From IMG/VR virus record IMGVR_UViG_3300042891_001375: a stretch of DNA of 64,000 bases, one strand, 5' to 3'. Positions 25 through 52,327 of this stretch are shown in pieces. Source of the stretch: an uncultured virus (IMG/VR IMGVR_UViG_3300042891_001375) (lineage: Duplodnaviria > Heunggongvirae > Uroviricota > Caudoviricetes). A program made the translations under genes and the position numbers. A model generated the notes under the pieces. That model worked only from the letters and a program-made list of their open reading frames with translations, made no database searches and was not told where the DNA came from. Every line of letters starts with the position of its first letter. Within the stretch, counting starts at the first letter, position 1.

Positions 25-450
25 ATGATAAATGAGCAATCTGAATTCAATCCTCCTCCAATGCTTCTGTTGAAAAGATTAGCACTTCGTATGTTTCCAG
101 ATGGAAAACGTGTTGTTCTTTATATTGATAACAAATATGGTCTCTCATTTCCAGTTCCATATGACGCATTTGCTCCAGGATTCAGTACTGTAAATACACT
201 CAGACCAGGTGCAAAAGTTGGTGGATTGCGCGCTGCAACTGCAGCTGCTGCAGGATATGTAAATGAAGAAACAGTTCCAGTAATTTTTGCCACAGGCGAA
301 GAAATTCTTGTTGAAAAAGTTGTTATGGATAAAATTAAAAATGTTTTTGATAATTTAAATGAAAAGAATAAAGAAAGATTATCAGATATGCTTCTTGAAA
401 GTCAAGAAACATTTAACAAAGTTAAAGATTTCGCACTACTAGTAGAATGA
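25..450 (+). CDS. hypothetical head-region protein
   Basis: 141-aa ORF upstream of the prohead core genes; ATGA overlap with next ORF. Confidence 0.6.
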   Translation: MINEQSEFNPPPMLLLKRLALRMFPDGKRVVLYIDNKYGLSFPVPYDAFAPGFSTVNTLRPGAKVGGLRAATAAAAGYVNEETVPVIFATGEEILVEKVVMDKIKNVFDNLNEKNKERLSDMLLESQETFNKVKDFALLVE

Positions 451-1358
451 ATACACAAGAAAGTTTTGAAGATCGATTTGGTTCTCCTGAATTTCAGGAT
501 AGAAAAGGATCAAATGTAGAAAACTCAGTGAGCCAAAAAGAAAAAGTACAGATGAAAAAATACGGCATTAAACCAAAAGATACAATGATTGATAAAATTA
601 ACAAGGTTATTGCAGAAGAAATGCCAGCACAAGATGTGGAAATTGATAACAACGAATATGATGATGAAGAAGATGAAGCAAAACAAAAAGAAAAAGAACA
701 AAAAAACGAATTAAAAATTAAGATTATGCAATACTTAAATCCTCGTATTGTAAAATCAAAAGAACTAAAGAACTATGTTGATCGATCAAACATTAAGGAA
801 GAAATTTATAAGACACTTAATAGTTTTGCTCAACAAAAATTAAATGCATATAAGAATGCAATTGCGCTCAATCTTCCAGTTGAACTTGGCGAGTCTGACA
901 AATTTATGCCAACGCCACGCCAAGTTCCCGCTCCTCCAGGTGGACTTCCAGTTCCAAAAGGATACGAGAGAGTAAAGAGCTGGGGTGGCGCATATGAGTT
1001 AAGAAGAACAGCAGAATCACTCCGCGACGAACATAATGAACTTCATACAACACCATCAGAAGAAACAGAGCAACTTGATGAGGCAAAGCGCAATCCAAAC
1101 GTGATGCGTCAAGGTCGTACGAAAGTAATCAAGGCTCGTGTTCGTGGTGGAAAAGTGCAGCGTCGCAAAAAAGTATCTGCTGTAAAAGGATACACAATTC
1201 GCGGTGGCAAACTCAAGCGTATGTCTGCTGCTGAAAGACTTCGCAGAAAACGTGGCGCTCGTATTGGTAAAATTAAAAGAAAAGCAAAGATGTCTCGTGC
1301 TATAATGAAAAGAAAACGCTCATTAAGAAAAAGAGCATCTCTTGGATTAAAGGAATAG
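447..1358 (+). CDS. prohead core protein (gp68-like C-terminal basic domain, acidic N-terminus)
   Basis: Directly upstream of gp21; very K/R-rich C-terminus (RRKKVSAVKGY...KRKRSLRKRASLGL) following QLDE. Confidence 0.65.
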   Translation: MNTQESFEDRFGSPEFQDRKGSNVENSVSQKEKVQMKKYGIKPKDTMIDKINKVIAEEMPAQDVEIDNNEYDDEEDEAKQKEKEQKNELKIKIMQYLNPRIVKSKELKNYVDRSNIKEEIYKTLNSFAQQKLNAYKNAIALNLPVELGESDKFMPTPRQVPAPPGGLPVPKGYERVKSWGGAYELRRTAESLRDEHNELHTTPSEETEQLDEAKRNPNVMRQGRTKVIKARVRGGKVQRRKKVSAVKGYTIRGGKLKRMSAAERLRRKRGARIGKIKRKAKMSRAIMKRKRSLRKRASLGLKE

Positions 1359-1362
1359 TAAA

Positions 1363-2007
1363 ATGAAATTGATTACAGAAACAGTCGAAGAAGTAAAGTA
1401 TATCACCGAAGACAATAACGGTGTGAAGACACTTTACATTCAAGGTCCATTTCTTGTTGCTGAAACAAAGAATCGTAATGGGCGCTCATATCCAGTTAGC
1501 GTTCTCGAAAATGAAGTAAATCGTTATATGAAAGAGTACGTTGATAAGAATCGCGCATTCGGTGAGCTCGGACATCCAGAGTCTCCAACGATTAATCTAG
1601 AGCGCGTCTCTCATATGATCACTAATATTACAAAGAACGGAAACGTCTTTGAAGGTAAGGCAAAAGTTCTTGACACGCCTATGGGTAAAATTGCCAAGAA
1701 TTTGATGGAAGCAGGGGCTACTCTCGGCGTTTCTTCGCGCGGAATGGGTTCTCTCAAAAACGAAGGTGGTGTAAACATTGTTCAACCAGACTTCTATCTC
1801 GCTACTGCAGCTGATATTGTTGCAGATCCATCAGCTCCAGGTGCTTTCGTTCAAGGTATTATGGAAGGTAAAGAGTGGGTGTGGGATAACGGTCTCGTCA
1901 AAGAACTTGATGTAAATGCATACTATGAAGAAATTAAAACAGCAAAGCAAAAACAGCTCGACGACATCTCTTTGAAGATCTTTGAGAACTTTTTGTCAAA
2001 GTTATAA
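1363..2007 (+). CDS. 21: prohead protease gp21
   Basis: MKLITE start, NRNGRSY, AFGELGHP, GVSSRGMGS, DIVADPSAPGAFV motifs. Confidence 0.97.
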   Translation: MKLITETVEEVKYITEDNNGVKTLYIQGPFLVAETKNRNGRSYPVSVLENEVNRYMKEYVDKNRAFGELGHPESPTINLERVSHMITNITKNGNVFEGKAKVLDTPMGKIAKNLMEAGATLGVSSRGMGSLKNEGGVNIVQPDFYLATAADIVADPSAPGAFVQGIMEGKEWVWDNGLVKELDVNAYYEEIKTAKQKQLDDISLKIFENFLSKL

Positions 2008-2011
2008 GTTT

Positions 2012-2019
2012 TATAAATA
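2012..2019 (+). promoter_or_regulatory. T4-type late promoter TATAAATA
   Basis: Exact T4 late consensus about 25 nt upstream of the gp22 ATG; AGGAG SD follows. Confidence 0.8.
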
Positions 2020-2044
2020 ATAATACCTCTTCAGGAGTTTTTAA

Positions 2045-5000
2045 ATGAAACATAAATCATTACATGAATCAGCAGCAGAAATTCTTGCAGCGTCTGTTGC
2101 AGGCGCAGGAAAAGAACCACTGCCAATGTCAGACATGTTAATGAATCCGCCAGTAGATTTAGGTGGAGAAATGACAACAGGAGATGTTACTGCTGTTGGT
2201 GATGCAGCTTCTCAATCAATGGAAGCATCACCAAAGCCAGGTCAACCTGGAGCTCCTGCTGAAGAAATGAAGACAGTCGAAAACGAATCAGAAGAAACTG
2301 AAGAAAAAGAAGAAGAAGAAGAGGAAGAAGGAGAGGAAGAAGAAAAGCCAGAAGCAATGATGGAAGCTCTCATTGCAGAGCATGGCGAACAAGTTATCCT
2401 CGAAAGTCTTATTTCAGAACACGGCGAACAGGCTGTGTATACTCAAATTCTAGAAAGTTTTGTTGCCGAGTATGGTGAAGATGCTGTCACAGACGCATTC
2501 ATCGATACATTGTCAGAAGAAATTGGAGATGAAAGATTACTTGATTTGATTGCTGAGTCTGTAGTTCCTGCATTCCACGAACAACAATTAACTGAAGAAC
2601 AATTTAATGTTCTTCAAGAACAATCAACCTCATTCATCACCGAAATGCAAACTCTTTCTGAAGAAGATTTTGAGAACTATATCTCAAATCTTACAGAAGA
2701 AGAATTTATTTACGCAATTCAATTATCGTCTCTCAACGAAGAATATCTCGTTGAATTCTTAAAGAAGATCGGCAAAGCACTTAAGAAAGGTGTGAAGGCT
2801 GTTGGTAAGGTAGCAAAGAAAGCAGTTAAGGTTGTTGCAAAAGCAGCACCACTTCTTTCATTCATCCCTGGTGTTGGTACTGCAGTCGGTGCAGTTGCTG
2901 GCAAACTATTGGGTGGAATCGGTTCAAAGATTGCAGGCAGTGCGCTTGGTAAAGCAGTTTCTGCTGGCGCATCAAAACTCGGTTCATCTGTACTTGGCAA
3001 AGCAGCACTTTCAGCAGGTAAGAGTGCACTACAAGGTGGTGTATCAAGCGTACTACAAGGTGGCAAATTCTCACAAGGCGCCAAGTTGGGCGCAGTAACT
3101 GGACTTGCTTCACCAATCGTTAATAAAGTTGCTGGTGGTTTGGCAAAAGCCACTGGTTCTGCTGCAATCGGTCAAACAGGAGCAGATGCTCTTGCTGGTG
3201 GTCTTGCAAACAAGGCAATGGGCGGCAGCTTCAGTCAAGGCGCAAAAACTGGCGCTATCGGTTCAGTAGTTGGCAGAGTTGCTGGTGGAATTGGCGATGC
3301 CATTCAACAAAGAACTGGATCTGACACAGCAGGAAATGTTGCGCGTGATGTTGCTACTGCAGTTGCTGATAAAGCAGCAAATCGCACAAAGGCAGCGTCA
3401 TACGGTGATCAAGAAGGTTCTGATGAAGCACCAGAGCAAGATGATGTTGAGCAACCAACACGTGTTGCCCAAACAACACCACAAGAAAGAGAAGAAGATG
3501 AGGATGCAGATAGCCCATCAAACTTCATGAGAGGCGTGAGAGCAAATAAAGTAGCCGCTCGTCGCCCAGCAACAAGAGGTGCTGCTGTACGAAATGTTGC
3601 TGAAGAAACTGATGATCTTTTAAATGAACTATCAGCACTCAATGAAGAACAATTAGATGCATTTATCAGCTCACTCAGTGAAGAAGAATTTGAAGCACTC
3701 AATGAGTTTGTTGGTCCACTAGCACGTGTTGGTGTTGCTGCTGGTAAAGCAGGTAAAGCACTAGTTGTTGCTGGTAAGAAAGCTGCATCTGGTCCAAAGG
3801 CTGCGAAAATTTCTGCAGCAGAAAAAGCAGCTGCAATAACTGCACAAGTTGCAACTAAATCAAAGGCTGGTGCTGCGCTTAAGACAGTTGGTAGAGTTGC
3901 AGGAAAACTTGCCCTACCAGTAACAGCTGGTCTTGCAGCATATGATGCTAAGAAAGGTTGGGATGTTGATCCAAATGCAACAACAGGCAAGAAAGCATTG
4001 AATGCTCTTCAAGGTGCTGCTTCTGGTGCAACATTAGGATTAATTCCTGGACCAACAAAAGCCGCTGCGCCAGCAAAGAAACCAGTTGCACCAACTAAGA
4101 AAAGTGCAGTTCCTGGAACTGACACACCAGCTGGATATGACAAATTTGGTCGTCCAGCAGGATCAAAAGATTTTGGTGTATCGCCAGCTCAAGTAAGAGC
4201 ACGTCCTGCAGTAACTGCAGCAAAACCAGCTGCTATGAGTGATGAACAGCGATATGGCAAAACTGGTGCTGCAATTCGCGGTGCTGATAAAGATGCATAT
4301 GCTAAGAGAAAAGACAGTGCATATCTACAATCAATGGGTATCACTGCTGCTCCTGGATCAGCAGAAGCAAATACGCAATTGCTACAAAAATTAAAAGACG
4401 GCAAAAAGCCAACTGCTGCTGCACCAGCTGCAGCTGTAGTATCAGAACCAACTCAAGCAACGACACCTGCACAACAATCAGTGACTGCTGGTGGAAGCAA
4501 ATGGGATGATTTGTCATCATGGGAAGCAAATCCAATTGCTCGTGGCGATGCTGGTGAAAGAGAAGATTATGAAGAGGCACCAACAACACCAGAGAAAGCA
4601 GGTGTTGGTATTTTTAGAACTCCAACAGGAGAGAAAACCAAACTAAGAAAAGCAATTCCAAACGAGATTGCCAACATCGTTGGTGGTCTTGCTGGTGGTG
4701 TAGGACAGGCTTTCAAAATCAAAGAACTCGGTTATAAGAAACCAGGATCAAGAGTAAATGAACAATTTGAGGACTCTAACATGAATGACGTAAACGGAGA
4801 AGAAACAACAATGGAAACAACAGAACTTACCGAAGAGCAAATTCGTGAAGAGAGAATGCTCGCTATTAAAGAAGCGGTAAAGCAATTCAAAGGAAACATG
4901 AGAGAAGATGTTGATGCTCTTTTCAACGGCGAGTCTCTTTCCGAAGAATTCCGTGCAAAAGCCACTTTGATTTTCGAATCAGCTGTGTCTTCTCGCGTTG

Positions 5001-5647
5001 AAAGCATTCTCGAACAAGTTATGGAACAGAACGATGCCGTTCTTGCCCAAGCATATGATGAGATCAAAGATCAACTAACAGAACAAGTTGATGAGTATCT
5101 CAATTATGTTGTTGAGCAATGGATGACTGAGAATCAAGTTGCCATCGAGACAGGACTACGTGCTGAACTCGCTGAAGACTTTATCTCTGGTCTACGTTCA
5201 TTGTTCCAAGAACATTATATCGAAATTCCTGAAGAGAAAGTTGATGTTGCAGAAACACTTGCAGCAGAACTTGAACAAGCAGGTGAATATGTTGAGACAG
5301 TTCATCAACATATTGAAGCACAAAACGTTGCAATCGCTGATCTTCAAGAGCAGTTGAATGCAGTCAAGAAAGAAAAAGCAATTGATAATTTCTGCGAAGG
5401 GCTCACAGCAGTCCAAGCAGCAAAAATGAAGTCGCTCGCAGAGGGCGTGGAGTTCACCGCAGAAGGTGATTTTGAAGAAAAACTCGCAGTACTACGCGAG
5501 AACTACTTCCCAACTAAAGTACAAGTGAAAAGTGAGGTAAAGGAAATTCAACAAGCAATGCTTAATGAAGAACCAGAAGTAGAACAAACCAATAATATTA
5601 TGGCTCGTTATGTCAAAGCAATCGCAAAAACGGCTCCAAAAGCCTAA
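2045..5647 (+). CDS. 22: prohead core scaffold protein gp22 with large N-terminal/central extension
   Basis: Between gp21 and gp23; C-terminal ~250 aa has gp22 motifs (EDVDALFNGESLSEEFRAKATLIFESAV, VDEYLNYVVEQW, LRENYF); total 1200 aa. Confidence 0.9.
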   Translation: MKHKSLHESAAEILAASVAGAGKEPLPMSDMLMNPPVDLGGEMTTGDVTAVGDAASQSMEASPKPGQPGAPAEEMKTVENESEETEEKEEEEEEEGEEEEKPEAMMEALIAEHGEQVILESLISEHGEQAVYTQILESFVAEYGEDAVTDAFIDTLSEEIGDERLLDLIAESVVPAFHEQQLTEEQFNVLQEQSTSFITEMQTLSEEDFENYISNLTEEEFIYAIQLSSLNEEYLVEFLKKIGKALKKGVKAVGKVAKKAVKVVAKAAPLLSFIPGVGTAVGAVAGKLLGGIGSKIAGSALGKAVSAGASKLGSSVLGKAALSAGKSALQGGVSSVLQGGKFSQGAKLGAVTGLASPIVNKVAGGLAKATGSAAIGQTGADALAGGLANKAMGGSFSQGAKTGAIGSVVGRVAGGIGDAIQQRTGSDTAGNVARDVATAVADKAANRTKAASYGDQEGSDEAPEQDDVEQPTRVAQTTPQEREEDEDADSPSNFMRGVRANKVAARRPATRGAAVRNVAEETDDLLNELSALNEEQLDAFISSLSEEEFEALNEFVGPLARVGVAAGKAGKALVVAGKKAASGPKAAKISAAEKAAAITAQVATKSKAGAALKTVGRVAGKLALPVTAGLAAYDAKKGWDVDPNATTGKKALNALQGAASGATLGLIPGPTKAAAPAKKPVAPTKKSAVPGTDTPAGYDKFGRPAGSKDFGVSPAQVRARPAVTAAKPAAMSDEQRYGKTGAAIRGADKDAYAKRKDSAYLQSMGITAAPGSAEANTQLLQKLKDGKKPTAAAPAAAVVSEPTQATTPAQQSVTAGGSKWDDLSSWEANPIARGDAGEREDYEEAPTTPEKAGVGIFRTPTGEKTKLRKAIPNEIANIVGGLAGGVGQAFKIKELGYKKPGSRVNEQFEDSNMNDVNGEETTMETTELTEEQIREERMLAIKEAVKQFKGNMREDVDALFNGESLSEEFRAKATLIFESAVSSRVESILEQVMEQNDAVLAQAYDEIKDQLTEQVDEYLNYVVEQWMTENQVAIETGLRAELAEDFISGLRSLFQEHYIEIPEEKVDVAETLAAELEQAGEYVETVHQHIEAQNVAIADLQEQLNAVKKEKAIDNFCEGLTAVQAAKMKSLAEGVEFTAEGDFEEKLAVLRENYFPTKVQVKSEVKEIQQAMLNEEPEVEQTNNIMARYVKAIAKTAPKA

Positions 5648-5672
5648 TTTAATTTAACTGAGGAAACACTAA

Positions 5673-6986
5673 ATGTATATCAACGAAACATATGCAAAGA
5701 AGTGGGCACCAGTTCTTGATCACCCAGAACTCCCAGCAATCAGCGACCCTTACAAGCGCGCAGTTACTGCTCTCGTTCTAGAAAATCAAGAGCGTGCTCT
5801 ACAAGAAGAAGCTCGTTCAATGCAAAACCTATGGGAAGCATCCCCAGCTAACGCTATGGGAACAGGCTCACCAAATGGTCTTTCAGGCGCAGCAGGTGCA
5901 CCAGTTGCTGGATTTGATCCAGTTCTAATTGGTCTCGTACGTCGTGCACTACCAAACCTAATGGCTTATGACATCTGCGGCGTTCAGCCAATGACTGGTC
6001 CAACAGGTTTGATTTTCGCAATGCGTTCACAATACGCCAACGCAACAGCAATGACAGGTGAAGCTCTCTATAACGAAGCAAACACCCATTATGCTGGTGC
6101 TGCTGGTGCAAACCCACTTGCAACATTGAACGCAAACATTGCAAACGTCACCCTAGCCAACACTGGTACAGGTATGACAACTGCAGTTGCAGAAGACAAG
6201 ACTCTAGAATATATGGGCTTCCAAATCGATCGCGTTGCTGTTACAGCAAAGTCACGCGGTTTGCAAGCAGCCTATACGCTAGAACTTGCACAAGATCTCA
6301 AGGCAATCCACGGTCTCGATGCAGAAACAGAATTGACAAATATTTTGTCAACTGAAATTCTTGCAGAAATCAACCGCGAAGTTGTCCGTACGATCTATGC
6401 AACAGCAAACATCGGTATCACTGGTCTATCAACAGCACAATTCAACCTATCTTCATCAAGCGACACAAGCGGTCGTTGGCAGGTAGAAAAGTACAAGTCA
6501 CTCTTGTTCGCTGTTGAGCGTGCTGCTAATAAGATCGCAAAAGATACCCGTCGCGGCAAGGGCAACATGCTCATCGTTTCAACCGATGTTGCATCAGCTC
6601 TTTCAATGACTGGTCTTTTGGACTACAACTCTGCTCTAACAAACAACACAAATCTAATGGTTGACGATACAGGCAACACATTCGCTGGATTGCTCTTCGG
6701 ACGCATCAAAGTGTTTGTTGACCCATATTCTGTCTCTGGTACAGATTATGCTGTTGTTGGTTACAAGGGTGCAACACCTTATGACGCTGGCTTGTTCTAC
6801 TGCCCATACGTTCCGCTACAAATGGTACGTGCAGTTGATCCAACAACTTACCAGCCAAAGGTCGGCTTCAAGACACGTTATGGTCTCGTAGCAAACCCAT
6901 TCGCAACAGCAGCTGGTCTTGGTGCTCTCGCAAACGACACAAACTACTACTATCGTAGATTCCAAGTGTTGAACATCAACCAGTAA
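5673..6986 (+). CDS. 23: major capsid protein gp23
   Basis: KWAPVLDH, CGVQPMTGPTGLIFAMR, ELAQDLKAIHGLDAE, FYCPYVPL, GFKTRYG. Confidence 0.99.
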   Translation: MYINETYAKKWAPVLDHPELPAISDPYKRAVTALVLENQERALQEEARSMQNLWEASPANAMGTGSPNGLSGAAGAPVAGFDPVLIGLVRRALPNLMAYDICGVQPMTGPTGLIFAMRSQYANATAMTGEALYNEANTHYAGAAGANPLATLNANIANVTLANTGTGMTTAVAEDKTLEYMGFQIDRVAVTAKSRGLQAAYTLELAQDLKAIHGLDAETELTNILSTEILAEINREVVRTIYATANIGITGLSTAQFNLSSSSDTSGRWQVEKYKSLLFAVERAANKIAKDTRRGKGNMLIVSTDVASALSMTGLLDYNSALTNNTNLMVDDTGNTFAGLLFGRIKVFVDPYSVSGTDYAVVGYKGATPYDAGLFYCPYVPLQMVRAVDPTTYQPKVGFKTRYGLVANPFATAAGLGALANDTNYYYRRFQVLNINQ

Positions 6987-13379: not shown

Positions 13380-14036
13380 ATGGAAAGATTGGTCAAATAT
13401 TACAAAGGCGATTTGATTGAATATAGCATATTCAAACTAGTTGACTTTTACGATCCAATTCTTCGCCAACCAACAATTCCATGGGATCATAAAAAGTATG
13501 ATCCAAAGGAATCAGAATATTTGGGGTTCTCTCTGGCTGAAACATTACAGAAACTCGGCGGTCTTGGTTTATCAGCCAACCAAGTAGGACTACCTCATAA
13601 AATTTGTGTAGTGAATATGGGTGAACATGGAATATGGACAATGTTCAATCCAGAAATTATTGAACATGGAGAGAAATTATCTGAATACTCTGAAGGATGT
13701 TTATCATATCCTGGACTATATCTGAAACTTCCAAGATACGATCATATCAAAGTGAAGTTTCAAGCAATGTATGGTCAAGAAGTGATTCATGAGTTTGATG
13801 GATTGACTGCTGTTTGTGTTCAACACGAATTAGATCATTTGAATGGAATTGTGTATACTGATAAAGTCAGTCCAATTAAACTTGATCAAGCAAAAAGAAA
13901 AGTCAAGAAGAATCTGAAGAAGATGAAAGCATTAACAGAGTCGCGAGAGATTCTAGAAATGCAACAGCCAACACAAGAGATTGTGAAGAAACAAGAACAA
14001 ACTGAGGCTGAAAAATTCGTCTATTCCACTGGTTGA
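13380..14036 (+). CDS. def: peptide deformylase
   Basis: GLGLSANQVG, EGCLSYP, QHELDHLNG. Confidence 0.95.
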   Translation: MERLVKYYKGDLIEYSIFKLVDFYDPILRQPTIPWDHKKYDPKESEYLGFSLAETLQKLGGLGLSANQVGLPHKICVVNMGEHGIWTMFNPEIIEHGEKLSEYSEGCLSYPGLYLKLPRYDHIKVKFQAMYGQEVIHEFDGLTAVCVQHELDHLNGIVYTDKVSPIKLDQAKRKVKKNLKKMKALTESREILEMQQPTQEIVKKQEQTEAEKFVYSTG

Positions 14037-16673: not shown

Positions 16674-16704
16674 TGTATTATAGTGAATGATAATGGAGTT
16701 TGAT

Positions 16705-18072
16705 GTGAGAAAGTCTAATTATGATGAAAGCGCGAAGATTGCGGTTCTTGAGAAGTTGCATGCGCACTTCGACAAAGATGTTGTTTCGGTCAAAGAACTG
16801 AATGACTATTGCCTGAACAAGAAGAATGGCATTCCGAATTTCCCATACTTCATTCTCCGCGAGCGCAAGGTTGGTCGCGGTCAGTATAACATCGTCCCCA
16901 AAAATGTTGGTTGTATCACTCCTGCTGCCTCGAATCAGGATGAAGTCCCAGTTGCTGCTGCTGCGATGGTCGCACAAGTTGTGAACATTGCTTCGCGTCG
17001 TGCACAAAATCTAACTGAGTCATTTGTGCCTGATCGCAACGAAACGTATGTTCCGTTTGGCTTCTACAATGACTTGCGCGACATCATCAAGTCACGCATC
17101 TTCTATCCCATCTATATCACTGGCTTGTCAGGTAACGGCAAGACGTTCATGATTGAGCAAGTTTGTGCTGCGCTCAAACGTGAGTTGATTCGCGTGAATA
17201 TCACGAAGCGCACCGATGAGTCTGACTTGATTGGTTCTTACGAATTGGTCGATGGCAATACTGTGCGTCGTGAAGGACCAGTGATCACTGCGATGCGTCG
17301 TGGTGCCGTGCTGCTTCTTGATGAGTGTGATCTCGGCACGGAAGATATTCTGTGCTTGCAGCCGATTCTTGAAGGCAAGCCATACTTCGACAAGAAGACT
17401 GGTGAAGTTGTCCACCCTGCTGCTGGCTTCAACGTGATTGCAACTGCGAACACAAAGGGCAAAGGCAGCGACGATGGTCGATTCATCGGTACAAACTTGC
17501 TCAACGAAGCATTCCTGGAACGTTTCGCGATCACTGTTGAGCAAGAGTATCCGCCAGCCAGCACTGAGCGAAAGATTCTCGAGAAAAATTTCGCTGTTCT
17601 GAATATCACTGACACGACGTTCATTGACCGTCTGATCACGTGGGCTGAATTGATTCGCAAGTCTTTTGCTGATGGTGCAGTTGATGAAGTCATCTCGACT
17701 CGTCGTCTTGTGCATATCACGAAAGCATTCTCTATCTTCAACAATCGTTTGAAGGCGATTGAGATGTGCTTGAATCGTTTCGATGCTGACACCAAGAATG
17801 CCTTCTTGGATCTCTACACAAAGGTTGATGCGGAGGCAACTCCTGCTCCTGTGACTCCTGATGCCACTGAGACTGCAGCGCGTCCATATGAATTGGTTGT
17901 GAGCAGAGACCCCAGTACACTCACCACCACTTTTTCGTATAGGGGTGAGACTGTCACATTCTCGGAGTTAGAGATTGAAGAATTGCGTAATCGAGGATTG
18001 TCAGAAGAGCAGATCAAACTCCGTGTTCTTGAGACTCTTGACAAGGTTGTTGCTCGCAAAGGTGCGATATAA
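16705..18072 (+). CDS. CobS/MoxR-like AAA+ ATPase
   Basis: GLSGNGKT Walker A, LLLDECD Walker B, ATANTKG, NEAFLERF, ISTRRL; GTG start after GGAG (track start 16687). Confidence 0.92.
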   Translation: MRKSNYDESAKIAVLEKLHAHFDKDVVSVKELNDYCLNKKNGIPNFPYFILRERKVGRGQYNIVPKNVGCITPAASNQDEVPVAAAAMVAQVVNIASRRAQNLTESFVPDRNETYVPFGFYNDLRDIIKSRIFYPIYITGLSGNGKTFMIEQVCAALKRELIRVNITKRTDESDLIGSYELVDGNTVRREGPVITAMRRGAVLLLDECDLGTEDILCLQPILEGKPYFDKKTGEVVHPAAGFNVIATANTKGKGSDDGRFIGTNLLNEAFLERFAITVEQEYPPASTERKILEKNFAVLNITDTTFIDRLITWAELIRKSFADGAVDEVISTRRLVHITKAFSIFNNRLKAIEMCLNRFDADTKNAFLDLYTKVDAEATPAPVTPDATETAARPYELVVSRDPSTLTTTFSYRGETVTFSELEIEELRNRGLSEEQIKLRVLETLDKVVARKGAI

Positions 18073-30107: not shown

Positions 30108-30164
30108 GGATGCCCATAAGGGGTCCATAACTATAAACTTGCTTATTAAAGGAGTTACAAAATG
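30108..30164 (+). promoter_or_regulatory. ROSE-like RNA thermometer in the hsp20 leader
   Basis: 5' hairpin GGATGCC...GGGTCC; SD hairpin AACTTGCTT-ATTA-AAGGAGTT with U(U/C)GCU opposite the SD and a bulged G. Confidence 0.7.
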
Positions 30165-30602
30165 ACAAATATCACTACACTCACATCCGCATACGGACTC
30201 GATCGCCTTCTTCCAACCGCTCTTGGGTTTGAAAATGCTTTCGCTGCTCTCGATAATGCTGCTCATCTACTTACAGCATCTCAAACTGCATTTCCTCCAG
30301 TGAACATCGTCAAGAAAGACGAATATAATTTTATCATTGAACTTGCAGTTGCTGGATACAAACAAGATGAGATTGAAATCACTGCTGAGAGAAACTCTCT
30401 CAAAGTCACAGGCAAAAAGGCTGAGGAAGAAGAACGCAACTATCTTGTAAAGGGTATTGCTGGTCGTAAGTTCTCACGCCAATTTGTTTTATCAGACACA
30501 GTAGTGGTTCGTGATGCAAATCTTGCTGATGGCATTCTTTCTATTGAATTAGAAAATGTCATTCCTGAAGAACAGAAACCTCGTAAGATTGAAATTAAAT
30601 AA
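30162..30602 (+). CDS. small heat shock protein Hsp20 (IbpA-like)
   Basis: FPPVNIVK, IELAVAGY, KGIAGRKFSRQF, ADGILSI, PEEQKPRKIEI. Confidence 0.95.
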   Translation: MTNITTLTSAYGLDRLLPTALGFENAFAALDNAAHLLTASQTAFPPVNIVKKDEYNFIIELAVAGYKQDEIEITAERNSLKVTGKKAEEEERNYLVKGIAGRKFSRQFVLSDTVVVRDANLADGILSIELENVIPEEQKPRKIEIK

Positions 30603-37986: not shown

Positions 37987-38399
37987 AAGTTTATAACATC
38001 TATAATCATTTAAATGGTAACAAACAAGATAATCTGGGCAGTTTCTCGGATGAACGAGGATCAATTACAGATATCTTCTATCAAAAATCTATGCATCATG
38101 GTTGTATAATTCAAAACAATCCAGGTGCCGTGAGAGGCAATCACTATCATAACCAAACAATTCAATATACGTTTATTCTGTCTGGTTCATTGCGATATTA
38201 TGCTTCAAATTTAGACAGAACTGAATTGGTTACGCATGATGCGATTCCTGGTGATTTCATCGTTAGTGGACCACAAGAAATTCATGCGATGAAAGCAGGA
38301 TCAGAGGGCTGTGTGTTTATTGCATTCGCTGAAGGTCCACGTGGCGGCGAAGATTATGAGAAAGATACAGTTCGAGTAGATTCGATTGTCAATGACTAA
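37983..38399 (+). CDS. cupin-fold sugar isomerase/epimerase (FdtA/WxcM- or RmlC-like)
   Basis: DERGSI, VRGNHYH, EIHAM. Confidence 0.72.
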   Translation: MKVYNIYNHLNGNKQDNLGSFSDERGSITDIFYQKSMHHGCIIQNNPGAVRGNHYHNQTIQYTFILSGSLRYYASNLDRTELVTHDAIPGDFIVSGPQEIHAMKAGSEGCVFIAFAEGPRGGEDYEKDTVRVDSIVND

Positions 38400-38988
38400 A
38401 ATTGCTGTTGTCATTGGCAGTACTGGTGGAATTGGTGCAGCGGTTTGTCAAGGTCTAAAAGAACATTACATCGTTGTTCATGTAGATAGAACAACAATTG
38501 ATTTCAATAAATCAGATTGTTATGAGTTATTGAATAGCCTTTTGGTATCTCAAAATCCTGATCTGATTGTAAATTGCTCAGGGCATTATACAGACAATTC
38601 TGAAAAGCACTACGACACAATGAATGTTAATCTTGGATCTAATTGGTCAATCATCAAGCACTACATCGAAAATAAACCAGCAAAAAAGATTAAACTGATC
38701 ATGATTGGTTCAAGTGCCTATCGTGAAGGTCGTAAGATGTATATGATGTATGCAGCAAGTAAGGCAGCATTGTACAACTTATGGTTAAGTGCTTGTGAGT
38801 ATTTTGACAATAGTAATCTTTCTATTGTTCTAATTAATCCTGTTAAAACAAAAACTAAAATGATGAATCCAACGGCAACTAGATATATTATGCCCGAGGA
38901 TGTTGCTAGTTCTGTTCTAGAGCATTCATTTGGTAATGATAATAAATGCATAGACATGTCATATTATAAGGAGTTGCGAAATGATTAA
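38392..38988 (+). CDS. short-chain dehydrogenase/reductase
   Basis: GSTGGIG, YAASKAA. Confidence 0.85.
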   Translation: MTKIAVVIGSTGGIGAAVCQGLKEHYIVVHVDRTTIDFNKSDCYELLNSLLVSQNPDLIVNCSGHYTDNSEKHYDTMNVNLGSNWSIIKHYIENKPAKKIKLIMIGSSAYREGRKMYMMYAASKAALYNLWLSACEYFDNSNLSIVLINPVKTKTKMMNPTATRYIMPEDVASSVLEHSFGNDNKCIDMSYYKELRND

Positions 38989-39760
38989 AGTTGGTGTAAT
39001 TGGAAAGGGAGTTGTCGGTTCAGCCGTTTATGACGGATTGATTCATCTTGGACACAAAATGAGTTTCTTCGATGTTAAGCACGAAGGATCTAAAATTGAA
39101 GACGTTTTAGATACTGATTGTGCTTTCGTTTGTGTTCCAACTGATCAATTGCCAAACGGTGATTGCGATACAAGCATCGTAGAGAAAGTCGTATCAGAGT
39201 TAAACGAAAGAAATTATTCTGGTCTTGTTGCAATTAAAAGCACAGTCACACCAGGAACATCTGAAAGTCTCTCAAGAAAATTTCCTAATTTAAAAATCTG
39301 CAGCGTTCCAGAGTTTCTTCGTGCACGCTCTGCTCTTGCTGACTTTATGTACAACCATGACCTTCTGGTTATTGGAAGTCATAGACAAGAGGACTTTGAT
39401 TTGGTGAAGCAGATTCATGGAAGATTGCCTCGTCAGGTTTCTTGTATCAAACCAACAGAAGCAGAAATTGTCAAATACTTTAACAATGTAAATCACAGCG
39501 TTCAGATTATTTTTGCCAATATCTTCTACGAAGTTTGTAAGAAACTTGACGCCGATTATGATAACGTATATACTACCATTATCAAACGTGATTGTTTCAA
39601 TCCAGCGTATCTGATGTGTAATGAAAATCTCAGAGGATTTGGTGGACACTGTTTGCCGAAAGACACATCAGCATGGGCAAGTCTAATGAACAAATTAGAT
39701 TTAGATTACACAACAATTCAATCTGTGCTTTCTGATAATGAGAAGATAAAGAATGGCTAA
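38981..39760 (+). CDS. UDP-glucose/GDP-mannose dehydrogenase family
   Basis: GKGVVG, CVPT, KSTVTPGT, PEFLR, GFGGHCLPKD. Confidence 0.9.
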   Translation: MIKVGVIGKGVVGSAVYDGLIHLGHKMSFFDVKHEGSKIEDVLDTDCAFVCVPTDQLPNGDCDTSIVEKVVSELNERNYSGLVAIKSTVTPGTSESLSRKFPNLKICSVPEFLRARSALADFMYNHDLLVIGSHRQEDFDLVKQIHGRLPRQVSCIKPTEAEIVKYFNNVNHSVQIIFANIFYEVCKKLDADYDNVYTTIIKRDCFNPAYLMCNENLRGFGGHCLPKDTSAWASLMNKLDLDYTTIQSVLSDNEKIKNG

Positions 39761-40640
39761 AATTTTAGTGACTGGTGCAAGTGGTCTATTGGGAACTGAA
39801 TTTTGCACTCAACTTAAAGATGCGGATAATTATGTTTGGGCGATTGATAATCACTCTCGCTCAAGCACGATTCCTCCGTGTGACGTTTGGGTGAGTCAGG
39901 ATCTAAATGATCCTAGAACATTTGAGACATTGCCAACTGATTTTGATTACATCTATCATTATGGCGCAATCAACGGAACAACAAACTTCTACAAGTATCC
40001 AAATAAAGTTTTGACAAATAATTTTATTTGTGATATCAATGTGTTTAATTTTGCGAGTCAGTGCGAGAAATTAAAGAATCTCGTTTATGCATCTAGCAGC
40101 GAAATCGTTGCTGATGATCCAGCCTCACCTGTTCCAGAGAATGCAGATGTCTTAATTAAGAACATCCATAATCCTCGATGGAGTTATCGACTCGCTAAGA
40201 TCACAAGCGAAAACTTTTTGACAAATAGTAACTTACCATGGTTGATCCTTCGATACTTTAATGTGTATGGAAAGAATAGTAAACAGGGTCACTTTCTCGG
40301 CGATCAAATCAATAAGATCCAGAATGGAACATTTAGTGTAATCGGAGCAAATGAGACGAGATCGTTTTGCTACGTTTCAGATGCAATTTCTGCCAGCATT
40401 CATGTTGCGCAAACTGTTTCGAAAGAAGTCATCAATATTGGTAATGATGCTGAAGTCAGAATTGGCGATGCTGTAAAGATTATTGCGAAACATCTTGGTT
40501 ACCCAGATGCAGTATTTGAAGAGTTGCCGAGCGTCCAAGGTTCAGTGGCGAATAGAAGACCAGACATAAGCAAACTTCGAAAGTATATGCCAAGTTATAA
40601 TCCGATATCCTTCGATGAAGGCGTGGAGAAAATTGTATGA
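39753..40640 (+). CDS. NAD-dependent epimerase/dehydratase
   Basis: TGASGLLG, ASSSE, YRLAK, RYFNVYG, RSFCYVSD. Confidence 0.9.
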   Translation: MAKILVTGASGLLGTEFCTQLKDADNYVWAIDNHSRSSTIPPCDVWVSQDLNDPRTFETLPTDFDYIYHYGAINGTTNFYKYPNKVLTNNFICDINVFNFASQCEKLKNLVYASSSEIVADDPASPVPENADVLIKNIHNPRWSYRLAKITSENFLTNSNLPWLILRYFNVYGKNSKQGHFLGDQINKIQNGTFSVIGANETRSFCYVSDAISASIHVAQTVSKEVINIGNDAEVRIGDAVKIIAKHLGYPDAVFEELPSVQGSVANRRPDISKLRKYMPSYNPISFDEGVEKIV

Positions 40641-41314
40641 GCCCATGTATTGCGACTATTTTCATGAAGAACATTGATCCTGTTTTATTGGATCATCAAA
40701 AAAGAGTTGTTGCTAAATTTAACAAATCGAATATTCCACACTATCACATATTGACTGAAGCACCTCCTGGTTATACCATGGATAAGTTAATTGATATGTT
40801 GGAAGAAAGAAGTCATGATGCAATTATGTTTCTTGATATTGATGCTGTGCCATTAAACGACACTGTCATTGATCACTTTTTCGAGCAAGCATATGCTGGT
40901 AAGGTTATTGGATCTGCTCAAAGAAGCAATCATATCGAAAACAAACAACATGTCTTTGCTGCTCCACATAATGTCACATTTACAATTGAAACATATCGTA
41001 AGTGCAAGAATCCATCTTTCAATCCAAACTATCGTGGTGATGTTGCAGAAGAATTGACTTTTGCTGCTGAAGAGAATAATATTCCTGTAGAGATTCTAAT
41101 GCCGTTGCGATATGATGCTCCACCAATTCGTATGGATTGGGAACCAAAAGATGCACCACCGTATTGGGATCTTGCTGATGGCATGCCAAAGTATGGTATT
41201 GGCACAACATTTGGCACAGAAGGAAATGAAATGTTCTGGCATATGTACCAAAGTTTTTATCCAGGACAAAAAGAAAGATTTATTAAAAAATGTGAGGAAA
41301 TTCTGAATGGCTAA
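40637..41314 (+). CDS. putative glycosyltransferase (DxD)
   Basis: MFLDIDAVPL; sugar-cluster context. Confidence 0.5.
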   Translation: MSPCIATIFMKNIDPVLLDHQKRVVAKFNKSNIPHYHILTEAPPGYTMDKLIDMLEERSHDAIMFLDIDAVPLNDTVIDHFFEQAYAGKVIGSAQRSNHIENKQHVFAAPHNVTFTIETYRKCKNPSFNPNYRGDVAEELTFAAEENNIPVEILMPLRYDAPPIRMDWEPKDAPPYWDLADGMPKYGIGTTFGTEGNEMFWHMYQSFYPGQKERFIKKCEEILNG

Positions 41315-48344: not shown

Positions 48345-49295
48345 ATGACTGTATTTGTGACTGGTGGTTTGGGATTTATTGGTTCTAATTTTGTAATCTC
48401 TCACCTGAAAAAATATCCTGATGAGAAAATTGTCATCATTGACAATCTTTCATATGCAGCGAATGAACAAAATCTAGATGGGTATTGGGGTGACTACCAC
48501 CTTCAACGCAAACATTGCGACATTCGCAATTTTGGACATCTGGAGAGTTTGTATCATGATTACCAACCAAATCTTACTTTTCATTTCGCTGCTGAATCTC
48601 ATGTGGATAATTCCATTCGCGGCGACGATATTTTCGTGGATACAAATATTACTGGAACCCACAACGTTCTCAAGTGTATTCGCAAACACGGCGGGAAATT
48701 AGTTCACGTTTCTACTGATGAAGTCTACGGAAGTCTAACTCACGAAGATCCTCCGTTCACTGAGAACACTCCATACAATCCTCGCAATCCATATTCTGCA
48801 ACCAAAGCAGCCAGCGATCATCTTGTTCGCGCATATGTCAATACGCATAATATTGATGCAATTGTAACTAACTGCTCTAATAACTATGGTCCTCGTCAGC
48901 ATCGCGAGAAATTCATTCCAACAATTATTCGCCATATTCAAAATAATACACCAGTTCCTGTTTATGGAAATGGAATGAATATTCGTGATTGGTTGTATGT
49001 TGAAGATCACTGTGAGGCTTTACTCGCAATCAAAGAAAACTGGAAATCAGGTGAGCGTTACAATATCGGTGGTGGTGTTGAGATGACCAATCTCGATATG
49101 GTCACTTTGATTCTTGATGTTATGGGTAAGCCAGTGCATATGTATCAATCATGGATTAATTTTGTGAATGATCGTAAGGGTCATGATTTTAGATATGCCA
49201 TGGATGCGAGTAAGATTTATAAAGAACTAGGTTGGTCAGCAAAGACTAAACTTGCTGAAGGTCTAGAAAAAACATTGGAGTATTATAATGCGTAA
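48345..49295 (+). CDS. rmlB: dTDP-glucose 4,6-dehydratase
   Basis: TGGLGFIGSNF, HFAAESHVDNSI, STDEVYG, YSATKA, NCSNNYGP. Confidence 0.95.
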   Translation: MTVFVTGGLGFIGSNFVISHLKKYPDEKIVIIDNLSYAANEQNLDGYWGDYHLQRKHCDIRNFGHLESLYHDYQPNLTFHFAAESHVDNSIRGDDIFVDTNITGTHNVLKCIRKHGGKLVHVSTDEVYGSLTHEDPPFTENTPYNPRNPYSATKAASDHLVRAYVNTHNIDAIVTNCSNNYGPRQHREKFIPTIIRHIQNNTPVPVYGNGMNIRDWLYVEDHCEALLAIKENWKSGERYNIGGGVEMTNLDMVTLILDVMGKPVHMYQSWINFVNDRKGHDFRYAMDASKIYKELGWSAKTKLAEGLEKTLEYYNA

Positions 49296-50160
49296 GGGAA
49301 TTATTTTATCAGGCGGTCTCGGTACTCGCTTGTATCCATGCACAAAAGTAATTTCAAAACAATTACTGCCTGTATATGATAAGCCATTGGTCTATTATCC
49401 AATCTCAACATTGATGATGGCTGGTATTCGTGAGATTATGATCATCACTTCACCTGCTGATCGTACACCATTTGAAAATTTAATTGGTAATGGATCACAA
49501 TGGGGGTTGAATATCTCATATGCAACTCAATTAGAACCAAGAGGTATTGCTGAGTGTTTTCGTATTGCTGAAAAGTGGATTGGCAAAGATGATGTCACTC
49601 TTATTCTTGGCGATAATATTTTCTATGGTAACGAACTTATCAATCGATTCAATGCTGCTTCTTGGAACAATACTGGCTGCACTTTGTTTGCTTATCATGT
49701 TGCAGATCCAGAAAGATTTGGTGTGATTGAACTTGATCATAATGATGATCCTGTTAGAATTGTAGAGAAGCCAAAAGTTGCTCCAAGCAATTATGCAGTC
49801 ACTGGGCTTTACTTTTACGACAATAAAGTAGTAGAATATGCTTGGAGGATAACTCCTTCAGCAAGAGGCGAATTAGAAATTACTGACATCAACAATCTTT
49901 ATATGCAAGATCACAATTGCAAGATTGAATATCTGAATCGTGGTATTGCTTGGATTGATACTGGCACGTTTGAATCTCTTTCAGAGGCATCTGTATTCGT
50001 TGGTTCTGTTCAACGTAGAACAGGAATGATGATTGCATGCCCTGAAGAAATTGCATATCGTAATGCATGGATTACAGAAAATGAAATTCGTCGGGCTGCA
50101 GAGAAATATAGTAAGTCTGATTATGGTAGATATCTTGGACAAATTTTGAGGACGAAATAA
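49288..50160 (+). CDS. rmlA: glucose-1-phosphate thymidylyltransferase
   Basis: GIILSGG.GTRLYP, SKQLLPVYDKP, LGDNIFYG, SARGELEITD, WIDTGT. Confidence 0.96.
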   Translation: MRKGIILSGGLGTRLYPCTKVISKQLLPVYDKPLVYYPISTLMMAGIREIMIITSPADRTPFENLIGNGSQWGLNISYATQLEPRGIAECFRIAEKWIGKDDVTLILGDNIFYGNELINRFNAASWNNTGCTLFAYHVADPERFGVIELDHNDDPVRIVEKPKVAPSNYAVTGLYFYDNKVVEYAWRITPSARGELEITDINNLYMQDHNCKIEYLNRGIAWIDTGTFESLSEASVFVGSVQRRTGMMIACPEEIAYRNAWITENEIRRAAEKYSKSDYGRYLGQILRTK

Positions 50161-51455: not shown

Positions 51456-52327
51456 ATGTTTTCGGAGGACATGGGTTTGTCGGAAGCGAGTATTGCCGAG
51501 CCTCGAAAGACGGTCTCATCAAAAATCATAGAAACAATTACGAAGTATCAAGTGCAAATTGTGTTTACTTTATTAGTACCGTTGACAACTATAATGTACA
51601 TTTCGATAATCAACTGGATATTAATACTAATCTCGTTGTTTTAATGCAGGTTCTGAATAGTTATCGAAAATATATTCAGAGAACTGGTGAGAAGGGCACT
51701 TTTAATTTTATCAGTTCTTGGTTTGTATATGGTCAAGACTCTGGGTTCGGTGTTGGCTCTCGCGGAATTCCAGAAACTGATCCATGTGAACCGAAGGGAT
51801 TCTACTCAATCACCAAACGATGCGCTGAGCAACTTCTCATATCATATTGTGAAACGTTTGATTTAAATTATCGGATATTGAGGTTAGCAAATGTATTGGG
51901 AAAACACGATAAAAAAGTATCTGCAAAGAAAAACGCACTTCAATACCTCTTGGGGGAAATTGCTAAAAACAAACCAGTGGACCTTTACGACTCTGGTTAT
52001 TTTTATCGCGATTATGTTGACGTTAGGGATTGCGCTCGTGCTATCGATCTTTGCGTTAGACTTGGGGAACAAAATAGCATTTATAATATCGGGAACGGTA
52101 AGGGGATAATCTTCCGCGATATTCTCCGATATGCTCGAGATGCGATGGACTCTGCATCAGTGTTTAATACTATCGAGCAAAAAGAGTTTCATAAGAAAGT
52201 TCAATCCTCTCGCTCTTTCTTTATGGATAATACCAAGTTGGTGGCGCTTGGATATAGACCAGAACACTCTATTAACGAAACAATCGACGATCTAATTCAA
52301 GGAATATTAACTGATAAAAATAACTAA
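51443..52327 (+). CDS. NAD-dependent epimerase/reductase
   Basis: GGHGFVG, YSITK, LRLANV, RDYVDV. Confidence 0.82.
   Translation: MAFVNVFGGHGFVGSEYCRASKDGLIKNHRNNYEVSSANCVYFISTVDNYNVHFDNQLDINTNLVVLMQVLNSYRKYIQRTGEKGTFNFISSWFVYGQDSGFGVGSRGIPETDPCEPKGFYSITKRCAEQLLISYCETFDLNYRILRLANVLGKHDKKVSAKKNALQYLLGEIAKNKPVDLYDSGYFYRDYVDVRDCARAIDLCVRLGEQNSIYNIGNGKGIIFRDILRYARDAMDSASVFNTIEQKEFHKKVQSSRSFFMDNTKLVALGYRPEHSINETIDDLIQGILTDKNN

Follow-up and report, generated by a model that had tools for sequence, protein, structure and literature searches.

The gene described here lies in a 64,000-nucleotide stretch of DNA (the window, one strand, 5' to 3') from an uncultured virus of the Caudoviricetes, IMG/VR record IMGVR_UViG_3300042891_001375. 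A single open reading frame (ORF) of 1200 residues, at positions 2045–5647 of the plus strand, is situated between the genes for a gp21-type prohead protease and the major capsid protein gp23, with AGGAG 8 nucleotides (nt) ahead of its start. It codes for a T4-type head scaffold, gp22, that contains two large basic blocks. We propose that its product is a scaffold-cargo polyprotein by which internal or ejection proteins are loaded into the head, a reading that we regard as evenly poised between right and wrong. The evidence consists of the gene and its conservation, the distribution of protease motifs along it, and the homologies of the basic blocks.

In the proposed mechanism, a normal T4-type scaffold would have gained two cargo blocks, with a copy of an acidic element ahead of each. 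The scaffold core would carry the whole chain into the prohead, and therefore no separate capsid-targeting sequence (CTS) would be needed. The gp21-type protease would cut at L/I-x-E motifs, so that the linkers and the core become small peptides able to leave, and two motif-free basic proteins would stay: cargo A of ~28 kDa and cargo B of ~34 kDa. Cargo A would expose an amphipathic helix as its new N terminus, as does a module of Rhs proteins that is released by autoproteolysis, and its low-aromatic, Gly/Ala-rich, probably flexible chain would suit storage beside DNA and passage through the tail. The cargo proteins would stay with the DNA, exit via the tail at infection, insert in the host envelope, and aid the passage of DNA.

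Architecture of the Long gp22

Recognizable scaffold sequence occupies the C-terminal quarter of the ORF. The Pfam family T4_CASP (PF25623) matches aa 952–1193 alone (E = 1e-61, 209.1 bits against a cut-off of 27), PHROG 237 (head scaffolding) matches aa 906–1195 (E = 7e-69), and T4 gp22 aa 19–214 align to aa 956–1152 (E = 6e-21). By these matches about 905–950 aa lie before the core, which confirms the ~900 aa given in an earlier reading of this DNA made without database searches (the sequence-only reading). That reading also gave T4 gp22 as shorter than 300 aa, and it has 269; the present gene has four times the usual length. Proteins of the gp22 class are ~270–450 aa long and nearly all scaffold; here ~850 of the 1200 aa are without a scaffold match.

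The additional sequence is not an N-terminal extension, as had first been supposed. The first 100 aa (2045–2344) are common to normal-size gp22 proteins: positions 1 to ~110 of a profile built on the extension match proteins of 140–452 aa, among them the T4_CASP-bearing P0050 and P0090. These are ordinary gp22 proteins of 431 and 452 aa, in which the N-terminal ~100 aa lead into an acidic LTEE..Y/F..LTEEE motif that is followed by the core. Since normal gp22 contains all three elements, the ~850 additional aa represent sequence inserted after a conserved gp22 N terminus. A further candidate for a short gp22 relative, P0047 (413 aa), begins inside the second acidic motif and is probably a contig-end fragment.

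The N-terminal region is followed by acidic linker A (aa 101–237, 2345–2755), which contains a poly-Glu run, (L/I)xE(H/Y)G repeats and the motif LSEEDFxNYISNLTEEEF, and ends in LVE; AlphaFold2 predicts its region at aa 190–247 to be helical (pLDDT 69–82). Then come a cationic amphipathic helix (aa 238–266, 2756–2842), which is the predicted N terminus of cargo A, a hydrophobic hinge (aa 267–285) with a Gly/Ala "zipper" region (aa 286–450) that holds two GGxFSQGAK repeats (together 2843–3394), and a spacer of mixed acidic and basic character (aa 451–517, 3395–3595) that is poorly conserved, with 35% identity to the relative L005. Acidic linker B (aa 518–554, 3596–3706) duplicates the LSEE motif and ends in LNE. 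It precedes cargo B (aa 555–894, 3707–4726; 34.0 kDa, pI 9.96), which carries RYGKTG and GIFRTPTGEKT motifs and, at aa ~611–670 (3875–4054), a helical hairpin, domain B, with a variable stretch after it. A near-invariant block (aa 836–915, 4550–4789) lies just N-terminal of the core and is 95–98% identical in relatives whose flanks are at 35–55%. The core itself spans aa 916–1200 (4790–5647), as placed by T4_CASP, PHROG 237 and the T4 gp22 alignment. Its pI is 4.4, and the net charges of the basic blocks are +13 and +22. All of these features are on the plus strand.

The repetition of the acidic element is a true internal duplication, aa 192–260 aligning with aa 519–580 at 36% identity (BLASTP, E = 9e-8). 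The sequence-only reading had viewed the acidic blocks as pieces that mask cationic peptides, in the manner of antimicrobial-peptide precursors. The LSEE..LSEEE element is also present in gp22 proteins of 431–452 aa that have no cationic cargo; judging from this distribution it is an ancestral scaffold or linker element, and masking is not its primary explanation. The linker B motif, LSALNEEQLDAFISSLSEEE, is weakly like helices 1–2 of the protein A Z-domain, LPNLNEEQRNAFIQSLKDD; the likeness (E = 0.011–0.9) is not significant, and it would fit a helix-turn-helix element. Searches of five pieces of the extension against Pfam (E ≤ 10) and PHROGs (E ≤ 1) gave nothing meaningful, and the best PHROG match in the extension, phrog_5115 ("ferredoxin," aa 722–807, E = 4e-4), is regarded as spurious.

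Protease Motifs and Predicted Cleavage Products

The prohead serine protease encoded directly upstream (1363–2007, plus strand, 214 aa; Pfam Peptidase_S77, E = 1.9e-33; PHROG 207, E = 5e-80) is 37% identical to T4 gp21 and conserves the GELxHP and GVSSRGxGS blocks. T4 gp21 is specific for L/I-X-E, as the sequence-only reading had stated, and the T4 gp23 propeptide has 65 residues (PMC9026906). In gp23 of the window, L53-W54-E55|A56 aligns with the T4 maturation site L63-T64-E65|A66. Given the homology of the protease and the conserved gp23 site, it is reasonable to apply the T4 rule L/I-X-E here.

Counts of strict L/I-x-E motifs were compared with those in 5000 shuffles. Linker A contains 13 such motifs against 5.3 expected, a number that none of the 5000 shuffles reached (P < 2e-4), and aa 892–1200 contain 14 against 6.6 expected (P = 0.002); linker B has 4 within 37 aa. 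The acidic linkers and the core would be cut to small pieces by this rule, with two basic blocks left. Bounded by strict motifs, the predicted products are a cargo A of 291 aa (aa 238–528, 28.4 kDa, pI 9.9) and a cargo B of 340 aa. The two peptides singled out by the sequence-only reading were placed correctly, FLKKIGK at aa 238 (nt 2756) and FVGPLAR at aa 555 (nt 3707), and each follows an acidic block, also exactly located, that ends in L-x-E (LVE for A and LNE for B). The short cecropin- or magainin-like products foreseen there do not emerge from the motif map, the next strict motif after aa 238 being at aa 528.

The same pattern is present in related proteins. A motif map was made of 14 long gp22 forms, with P0002, P0153, P0157, P0158 and P0162 of the 17 clusters described below left out. 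The motif-free fragments of at least 60 aa include an acidic N-terminal piece and a basic block of 232–319 aa in all 14. This basic block begins 0–1 residue after LVE, LNE or LDE in 13 of the 14 (the exception is P0006), and in 13 it starts with an F/GF-(F/L)-(K/S)K helix. One or two more blocks, with net charges of -2 to +22, follow the second acidic motif. Two normal-size gp22 proteins yielded the N-terminal piece alone, plus one 70-aa piece in P0090. Variation on this plan is seen in P0161 (1383 aa), which has three acidic motifs with a block behind each and three motif-free basic fragments listed, and in P0163 (674 aa, core 49% identical), which has a different basic insert at the same place.

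Cargo A and the Released Module of Rhs Proteins

Peptide A (aa 238–266) has a hydrophobic moment of 0.727 with its peak at 100 degrees, which 0 of 5000 shuffles reached. It contains 12 Lys and no acidic residue, and the Lys spacing peaks at 3, 4, 7, 8 and 11. The Kyte-Doolittle hydropathy reaches 1.61 at aa 267–285 only, the segment with the Ala-Ala-Pro hinge, and AlphaFold2 models aa 316–450 as all-helical (pLDDT 61–73). Peptide B (aa 555–579), by comparison, is weakly amphipathic, its moment of 0.384 being reached by 3% of shuffles. The sequence-only reading had seen one architecture occurring twice; the duplication stands, but the two peptides are not equivalent, and there is no second strongly amphipathic cationic unit. 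Peptides of the cecropin and magainin type are secreted cationic peptides of 20–40 aa. They share with cargo A a Lys-rich amphipathic helix, an Ala-Ala-Pro hinge, and a hydrophobic Gly-rich segment, and differ from it in that the predicted product here has 291 aa.

The extension profile was compared with 1.84 billion representative sequences and matched 172 proteins at E ≤ 1e-3; the matches described here are among the best 150 of these 172. Profile positions 237–410 match the C-terminal parts of proteins of 2295–2746 aa with SpvB, TcdB-mid and RHS-repeat domains. The same region also matches shorter Rhs C-terminal fragments, two of which carry Pfam DUF637. With hhalign, cargo A aligned to aa 107–282 of P0083 at a probability of 97.9 (E = 4e-13, 162 columns), in a protein with a Pfam DUF637 match at aa 138–224, and to P0098 at a probability of 96.8 (E = 3e-10). 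A hidden Markov model of cargo A scored six Rhs-type modules at 39–64 bits, and 300 shuffles of each never exceeded 8.5 bits; composition thus does not explain the match. A DUF637 cluster is given in the ESM Atlas at 0.87, which we take as a lead only.

In five of the six Rhs-type proteins, a Lys-rich helix, F(F/L)KKL.KK, starts 1–5 aa beyond the terminal TDP(S/T)G motif of the Rhs core; in these five, 106–181 residues lie downstream of the module. The sixth protein, P0081, has no such helix at its displayed start. The module in the window protein starts directly after a predicted protease motif, as it does in the Rhs proteins, and runs into an acidic spacer where those have a toxin domain. 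On the evidence of these alignments, cargo A is homologous to a module of ~170 aa that lies directly behind the Rhs autoproteolytic site. In the Rhs toxin Tse5 of P. aeruginosa, the DPXGX19DPXG motif is an aspartyl autoprotease, and activity depends on the cut made directly behind it; the fragment so released is flexible within the Rhs shell and inserts spontaneously into membranes (PMC10684867).

The basic character of the two blocks might instead mark DNA-associated internal proteins, Lys/Ala/Gly-rich fragments that would act as counter-ions or organizers of DNA and have no membrane role. Both blocks have a pI of ~10 and are 9–12% Lys, the tail of the neighboring gp68-like protein is even more basic, and the T4 internal proteins are retained with DNA (PMC9026906, PMC7697877). 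Against this explanation, the charge of peptide A is arranged as a strict amphipathic helix that adjoins a hydrophobic segment, and the nearest relatives of the modules are directed to membranes or envelopes and are not DNA-binding. We consider it decidedly unlikely.

The helix and hydrophobic segment of cargo A also begin small proteins of 99–163 aa with a hydrophobic C-terminal anchor, one of which, P0106, aligns with an hhalign probability of 98.2. Their resemblance to small phage membrane proteins would suit a role for the unprocessed gp22 or its fragments at membranes inside the infected cell, such as anchoring of the prohead, depolarization of the host, or help in lysis in the manner of cationic lysis peptides; in T4 the inner membrane is where heads nucleate (PMC5694885). 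A scaffold, however, sits within the shell, so that most copies could not reach a membrane, and the site between L-x-E and scaffold elements points to release inside the head. Pfam and PHROG scans found no lysis genes adjoining the locus, and such an intracellular role seems highly improbable to us.

The first 42–60 aa of cargo A are found inside proteins of 434–864 aa on podovirus-like IMG/VR contigs. These carriers have a tape-measure-type C-terminal motif (PHROG E = 1e-4 to 1e-7) and sit after a gene matching phrog_3287, "virion structural protein"; the relatives of this protein in cultured phages, e.g. in Pelagibacter phage HTVC027P, bear the annotation "stabilization protein" or tail protein. 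Gene position together with the PHROG labels suggests that they are ejection proteins of short-tailed phages. In two of the three podovirus-like contigs inspected for it, the helix is preceded by (L/M)-x-E-(F/Y)-G (MAEFG|WLKK and LPEYG|FFKK), which may be another Glu-directed processing site; the three loci are L017 2059–3852, L019 4752–6416 and L024 3537–6128.

Cargo B and the Mobility of the Modules

Domain B is defined by the motif GRxxGKxAxPLxxGMxAYDAxKGxxADPNA..NAG..L.G.TFGL, over which window aa ~611–670 align with 14 proteins. The domain occurs in many proteins of 58–1250 aa, and many of the matches listed have E values of 1e-7 to 1e-14. A lysozyme, glucosaminidase or M15/VanY domain is present downstream in 6 of 20 scanned domain B proteins, and several have the PHROG label endolysin or tape measure. 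In the window gp22, Pfam scans found no peptidoglycan hydrolase domain. A sister long gp22, P0004, has a LysM domain at the position of cargo B and no domain B motif. The AlphaFold2 model of domain B is a helix-loop-helix (pLDDT 57.1). The homologies of the two blocks point to action at the envelope, through membrane insertion by cargo A and, for cargo B, through a hairpin held in common with muralytic phage proteins.

The modules are not confined to scaffolds. P0005 (996 aa) contains domain B, the NIRG, RYGKTG and GIFR motifs, acidic repeats, the junction LVE|LKKFFKK, and a Gly/Ala region, and has no gp22 core. Judging from such proteins, the cargo modules are mobile between carriers. The window encodes a 541-aa protein (61043–62665, plus strand; PHROG 4359, no known function) with the N terminus MSNxNE and the C terminus DxDNDGD..YLxNRR that are seen in P0005 and P0008. 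It matches these two proteins at E = 1e-11 over the C-terminal 79 aa (BLASTP), the N-terminal match being weak (E = 0.11). The middles of P0005 and P0008 hold the gp22 cargo modules, and the family that they form with the 541-aa protein resembles a second carrier whose middle can be exchanged.

The N terminus of the 541-aa protein reads MSNNNE.., and its C-terminal motif, DVDNDGDSDESDDYLKNRREK, is Ca-binding-like; PHROG 4359, which covers its C terminus, also matches window positions 56135–57406. Two viral scans and one metagenome scan for the gene context of the stand-alone carriers P0005 and P0009 gave nothing or the C-terminal DNDGD motif alone, and the genes around L009 were uninformative. 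P0009 shares with the gp68-like protein a 40-aa motif match alone (E = 0.048), which is a lead and not a finding.

Selection, Recombination, and a Possible Internal Start

Ratios of nonsynonymous to synonymous substitution (dN/dS) were computed against the relatives L004 and L005. They are 0.06–0.13 for aa 1–100, 0.12–0.28 for cargo A, 0.10–0.61 for the spacer, 0.24–0.46 for the first part of cargo B, 0.04–0.08 for the block at aa 836–915, and 0.07–0.16 for the core. The synonymous divergence (dS) between the window and L004 varies ~35-fold along the gene, from 0.04 in the core to 1.48 in linker A. The gene is therefore a recombination mosaic, and the pattern against L004 indicates recent recombination between related phages within gp22.

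These values bear on the view that the extension is purely morphogenetic, i.e. that it enlarges or reshapes the core or neutralizes its acidity (pI 4.4) and is then wholly degraded and expelled. The basic blocks (+13 and +22) do share a chain with acidic ones, and the extension varies in its middle, some of which L008 lacks. Cargo A is nevertheless under purifying selection (see above), and filler would not be expected to match an Rhs module, tape-measure-like proteins or proteins with muralytic domains. P0005 holds the same modules without a scaffold core, and motif-free blocks of 28–34 kDa would presumably be too large to leave through capsid pores as small peptides do. A purely morphogenetic role is rather unlikely.

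Core-only scaffold could in principle be made from the same gene. Among the 23 in-frame ATG codons, a Shine-Dalgarno-like tetramer lies 5–16 nt upstream at aa 1, 913 and 923 only. Met913 (4781–4783, plus strand), with GAGGA 7 nt upstream, would give a core-only scaffold of 288 aa, and Met923 (4811–4813, plus strand) one of 278 aa. At the nucleotide level, the sequence ahead of Met913 is not conserved beyond the level of the surrounding block, and an annotated internal start is known in T4 gene 21. As a hypothesis, a nested start at Met913 or Met923 would yield a scaffold of T4 size and possibly lower the cargo load.

The Long Gene in Independent Data

The sequence-only reading had asked for read mapping to guard against misassembly, and the long frame is found intact in other data. 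One 6051-nt contig from run X10 is identical to window 1300–4659, with 0 differences, and more X10 contigs cover 4630–5458; tiled contigs from run X9 cover 1300–5700 with 0–6 differences per contig. IMG/VR contigs contain the same long gene at 100, 99, 75, 54 and 53% identity over the extension. In a collection of 5.8 billion proteins, the core occurs in 17 protein clusters of 660–2100 aa (E ≤ 1e-10), of which 15 have a core at least 78% identical to that of the window. The cluster to which the window protein belongs comprises 30 members from 13 contigs, and the longest of these contigs measures 134,188 nt. Because independent runs and IMG/VR relatives carry the same layout, misassembly is excluded.

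A chimeric assembly, or genes fused by a sequencing error, is accordingly the least probable of all explanations, and extremely so. Its attraction lies in the repeat-like Gly/Ala-rich and poly-Glu stretches and in a 4-aa poly-Glu deletion in L003; against it, the frame is open at all five levels of identity and in the 17 clusters, and dN/dS is below 1 throughout. The poly-Glu run (2300–2345) varies in length among near-identical contigs, as in L003, and positions 2293–2346 were marked as a skipped repeat in the mapping to the window.

At least 93% of the sampled words were present in each of 14 DNA runs. With 8 possible source runs subtracted, 6 runs from 5 studies are left, every one of them a lake or freshwater metagenome; the phage is a freshwater (lake) phage. 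Short contigs from the RNA libraries X15 and X16 lie on parts of the ORF (e.g. in X15 at 3508–3658 and 4396–4546), which is no proof of transcription, as the shares are small (0.18 and 0.16) and DNA may occur in RNA libraries.

The nearest cultured phages are distant, with gp23 at most 57% identical (cyanophages and the Methylophilales phage Melnitz) and the gp22 core ~40% identical (Pelagibacter phage Mosig and cyanophages). When the whole protein was searched against 50,697 deposited phage records (tblastn, with the BLAST low-complexity filter on, as in all searches of these records), matches were confined to aa 941–1199, and the extension was covered in 0 of the 2312 matching records. Neither cargo A alone (E ≤ 0.01) nor a podovirus-type carrier of its helix gave a match in the deposited records.

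The Head Gene Locus

The head module begins with a 255-aa protein of which the end alone is inside the window (25–450). It is followed by a protein of 303 aa (447–1358, plus strand) with an extremely basic C-terminal tail that ends in LGLKE. This protein is positioned as T4 gene 68, ahead of gene 21, and has a C terminus like the basic one of T4 gp68: its Arg/Lys-rich tail of ~100 aa ends in ..RKRASLGLKE, and the basic end of T4 gp68 is ..RRKALGLS. Pfam and PHROG scans of it gave no match; it is probably the gp68 homologue. Both proteins ahead of the protease end in L-x-E at the extreme C terminus (LVE* and LKE* in the window, LIE* and LKE* in L004), an observation that covers window 25–450 and 447–1358 as well as L004 and L008. 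These ends have the look that would be expected of a gp21 cleavage product.

Downstream of gp22 are gp23 (5673–6986, plus strand; Pfam Gp23, E = 4e-127), a tail-tube-like protein, UvsY, and UvsW. The T4 gene order is 67, 68, 21, 22, 23, with which the window order of 68-like gene, protease, gp22 and gp23 agrees. The remainder of the window contains the T4 replication and late-transcription set (gp55, gp46/47, gp45, gp44/62, RegA, gp43, UvsX and gp41). Auxiliary genes are found at 13380–14033, 16687–18069, 30162–30599, 38386–41311 and 48345–52324. They include genes for peptide deformylase, Hsp20, and a CobS-like ATPase that has the PHROG label "porphyrin biosynthesis," and two gene clusters code for nucleotide-sugar enzymes (epimerases, dehydrogenase, aminotransferase and cytidylyltransferase).

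Discussion

The T4 prohead core, made up of gp22 together with the internal proteins IPI–III and Alt, which gp21 trims, is among the closest known counterparts of the system proposed here. The two have the same gene order, a homologous protease, a homologous scaffold core, a corresponding gp23 cleavage site and basic cargo, and in both, L/I-x-E motifs adjoin the predicted mature N termini. In T4, the fragments into which core proteins are cut exit from the head, and internal proteins stay and are ejected (PMC9026906, PMC5694885). The T4 internal proteins are encoded by separate genes with a CTS of 10–20 aa, beside a gp22 of 269 aa (PMC5694885), whereas the cargo here lies within the scaffold chain: it is encoded inside the gp22 frame and not by a separate CTS gene, and L-x-E precedes both blocks. 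No similarity of the extension to T4 internal proteins was seen, its PHROG matches being limited to the spurious one.

Several observations weigh against a scaffold-cargo polyprotein. Each step after translation, from cleavage at the predicted sites through retention in the virion and ejection to membrane insertion, is deduced from sequence. The lack of strict L/I-x-E motifs in the 617 aa of cargo (0 against 1.7 expected, P = 0.165) is not significant by itself and largely reflects a low Glu content; some relatives have I-P-E inside cargo B; and the lineages compared in the motif map are related, so that its counts are not independent. Transmembrane-like hydropathy is found in a single segment, aa 267–285. 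The structure models are of low confidence (pLDDT 57.1 for domain B and 60.9 for aa 190–460), and a Foldseek search of the AlphaFold2 models against the Protein Data Bank (PDB) gave nothing below E = 4. With regard to the Rhs kinship, Pfam DUF637 did not match aa 238–452 of the window protein even at E ≤ 10, and the profile did not match Tse5, the solved Rhs pore-former, at E ≤ 1 in a search of PDB sequences. In the Rhs proteins a toxin domain trails the module, and in the window protein an acidic spacer does.

The load is also heavy. T4 gp22 is present in 576 copies (PMC5694885), and at this copy number ~36 MDa of cargo would share the head with DNA. Phage SPN3US is reported to carry more than 40 MDa of ejection proteins (PMC7411985). 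The suggestion in the sequence-only reading that the scaffold may be a carrier of membrane-directed cargo has been strengthened by the homologies and the motif enrichment, although four of its details (short peptides, a second amphipathic unit, masking by acidic pro-pieces, and an N-terminal extension) are not supported as they were worded.

In the Rhs toxins (Tse5; the DUF637/PT637 pre-toxin region), a flexible, membrane-directed segment is likewise stored in a shell and freed at its N terminus (PMC10684867). The Rhs systems use an aspartyl autoprotease and a cocoon and the phage would use its prohead protease and capsid; a toxin domain follows in Rhs and not here. The giant phages phiKZ, 201phi2-1 and SPN3US, with inner-body and ejection proteins processed by a gp21-like protease, cut many head proteins after Glu at short motifs (PMC9026906, PMC5694885), have long propeptides with multiple sites for clearance, and eject a large mass of internal protein (PMC7411985). 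They differ in that the cargo is encoded by separate genes with their own propeptides and that no gp22 counterpart has been confirmed for them (PMC5694885); here the cargo is inside a bona fide gp22. Putative ejection proteins of short-tailed phages, with a tape-measure-type C-terminal motif, share the first ~40–60 aa of cargo A, and domain B is found in proteins of 400–1250 aa, some with a lysozyme or peptidase domain. The window protein, in contrast, is without a muralytic domain, and its delivery would be by a T4-type head and contractile tail.

Protease-processed internal head proteins are known already. What appears to be new is that cargo is loaded within the scaffold chain and that this cargo is kin to a released Rhs module; a full-text literature search, with most subscription journals outside its range, turned up neither a long gp22 nor a scaffold-cargo fusion in nature. 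A wider conjecture, which we put forward as possible but doubtful, is that capsids and Rhs cocoons use one membrane module of the type "store in shell, cut, insert." In this T4-like lake lineage the scaffold would then load the module in as many as hundreds of copies, along with a hairpin that muralytic phage proteins also have; both would be ejected with the DNA or before it and form a conduit across the inner membrane. An internal start at Met913 may govern how much scaffold bears cargo and how much is plain.

How head proteins are chosen for packaging and how DNA of T4-type phages crosses the inner membrane are understood only in part. If the proposal of a scaffold-cargo polyprotein is true, fusion of cargo to the scaffold would be a third loading route beside the short targeting peptides of T4 and the long propeptides of the giant phages, and it would be nature's equivalent of the cargo fusions made by engineering. 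Both the cleavage sites and the fragments predicted here are open to direct checks. The homology between a phage head component and a released Rhs module links two delivery systems that are usually studied apart, and it gives the widespread DUF637-region module a testable function.

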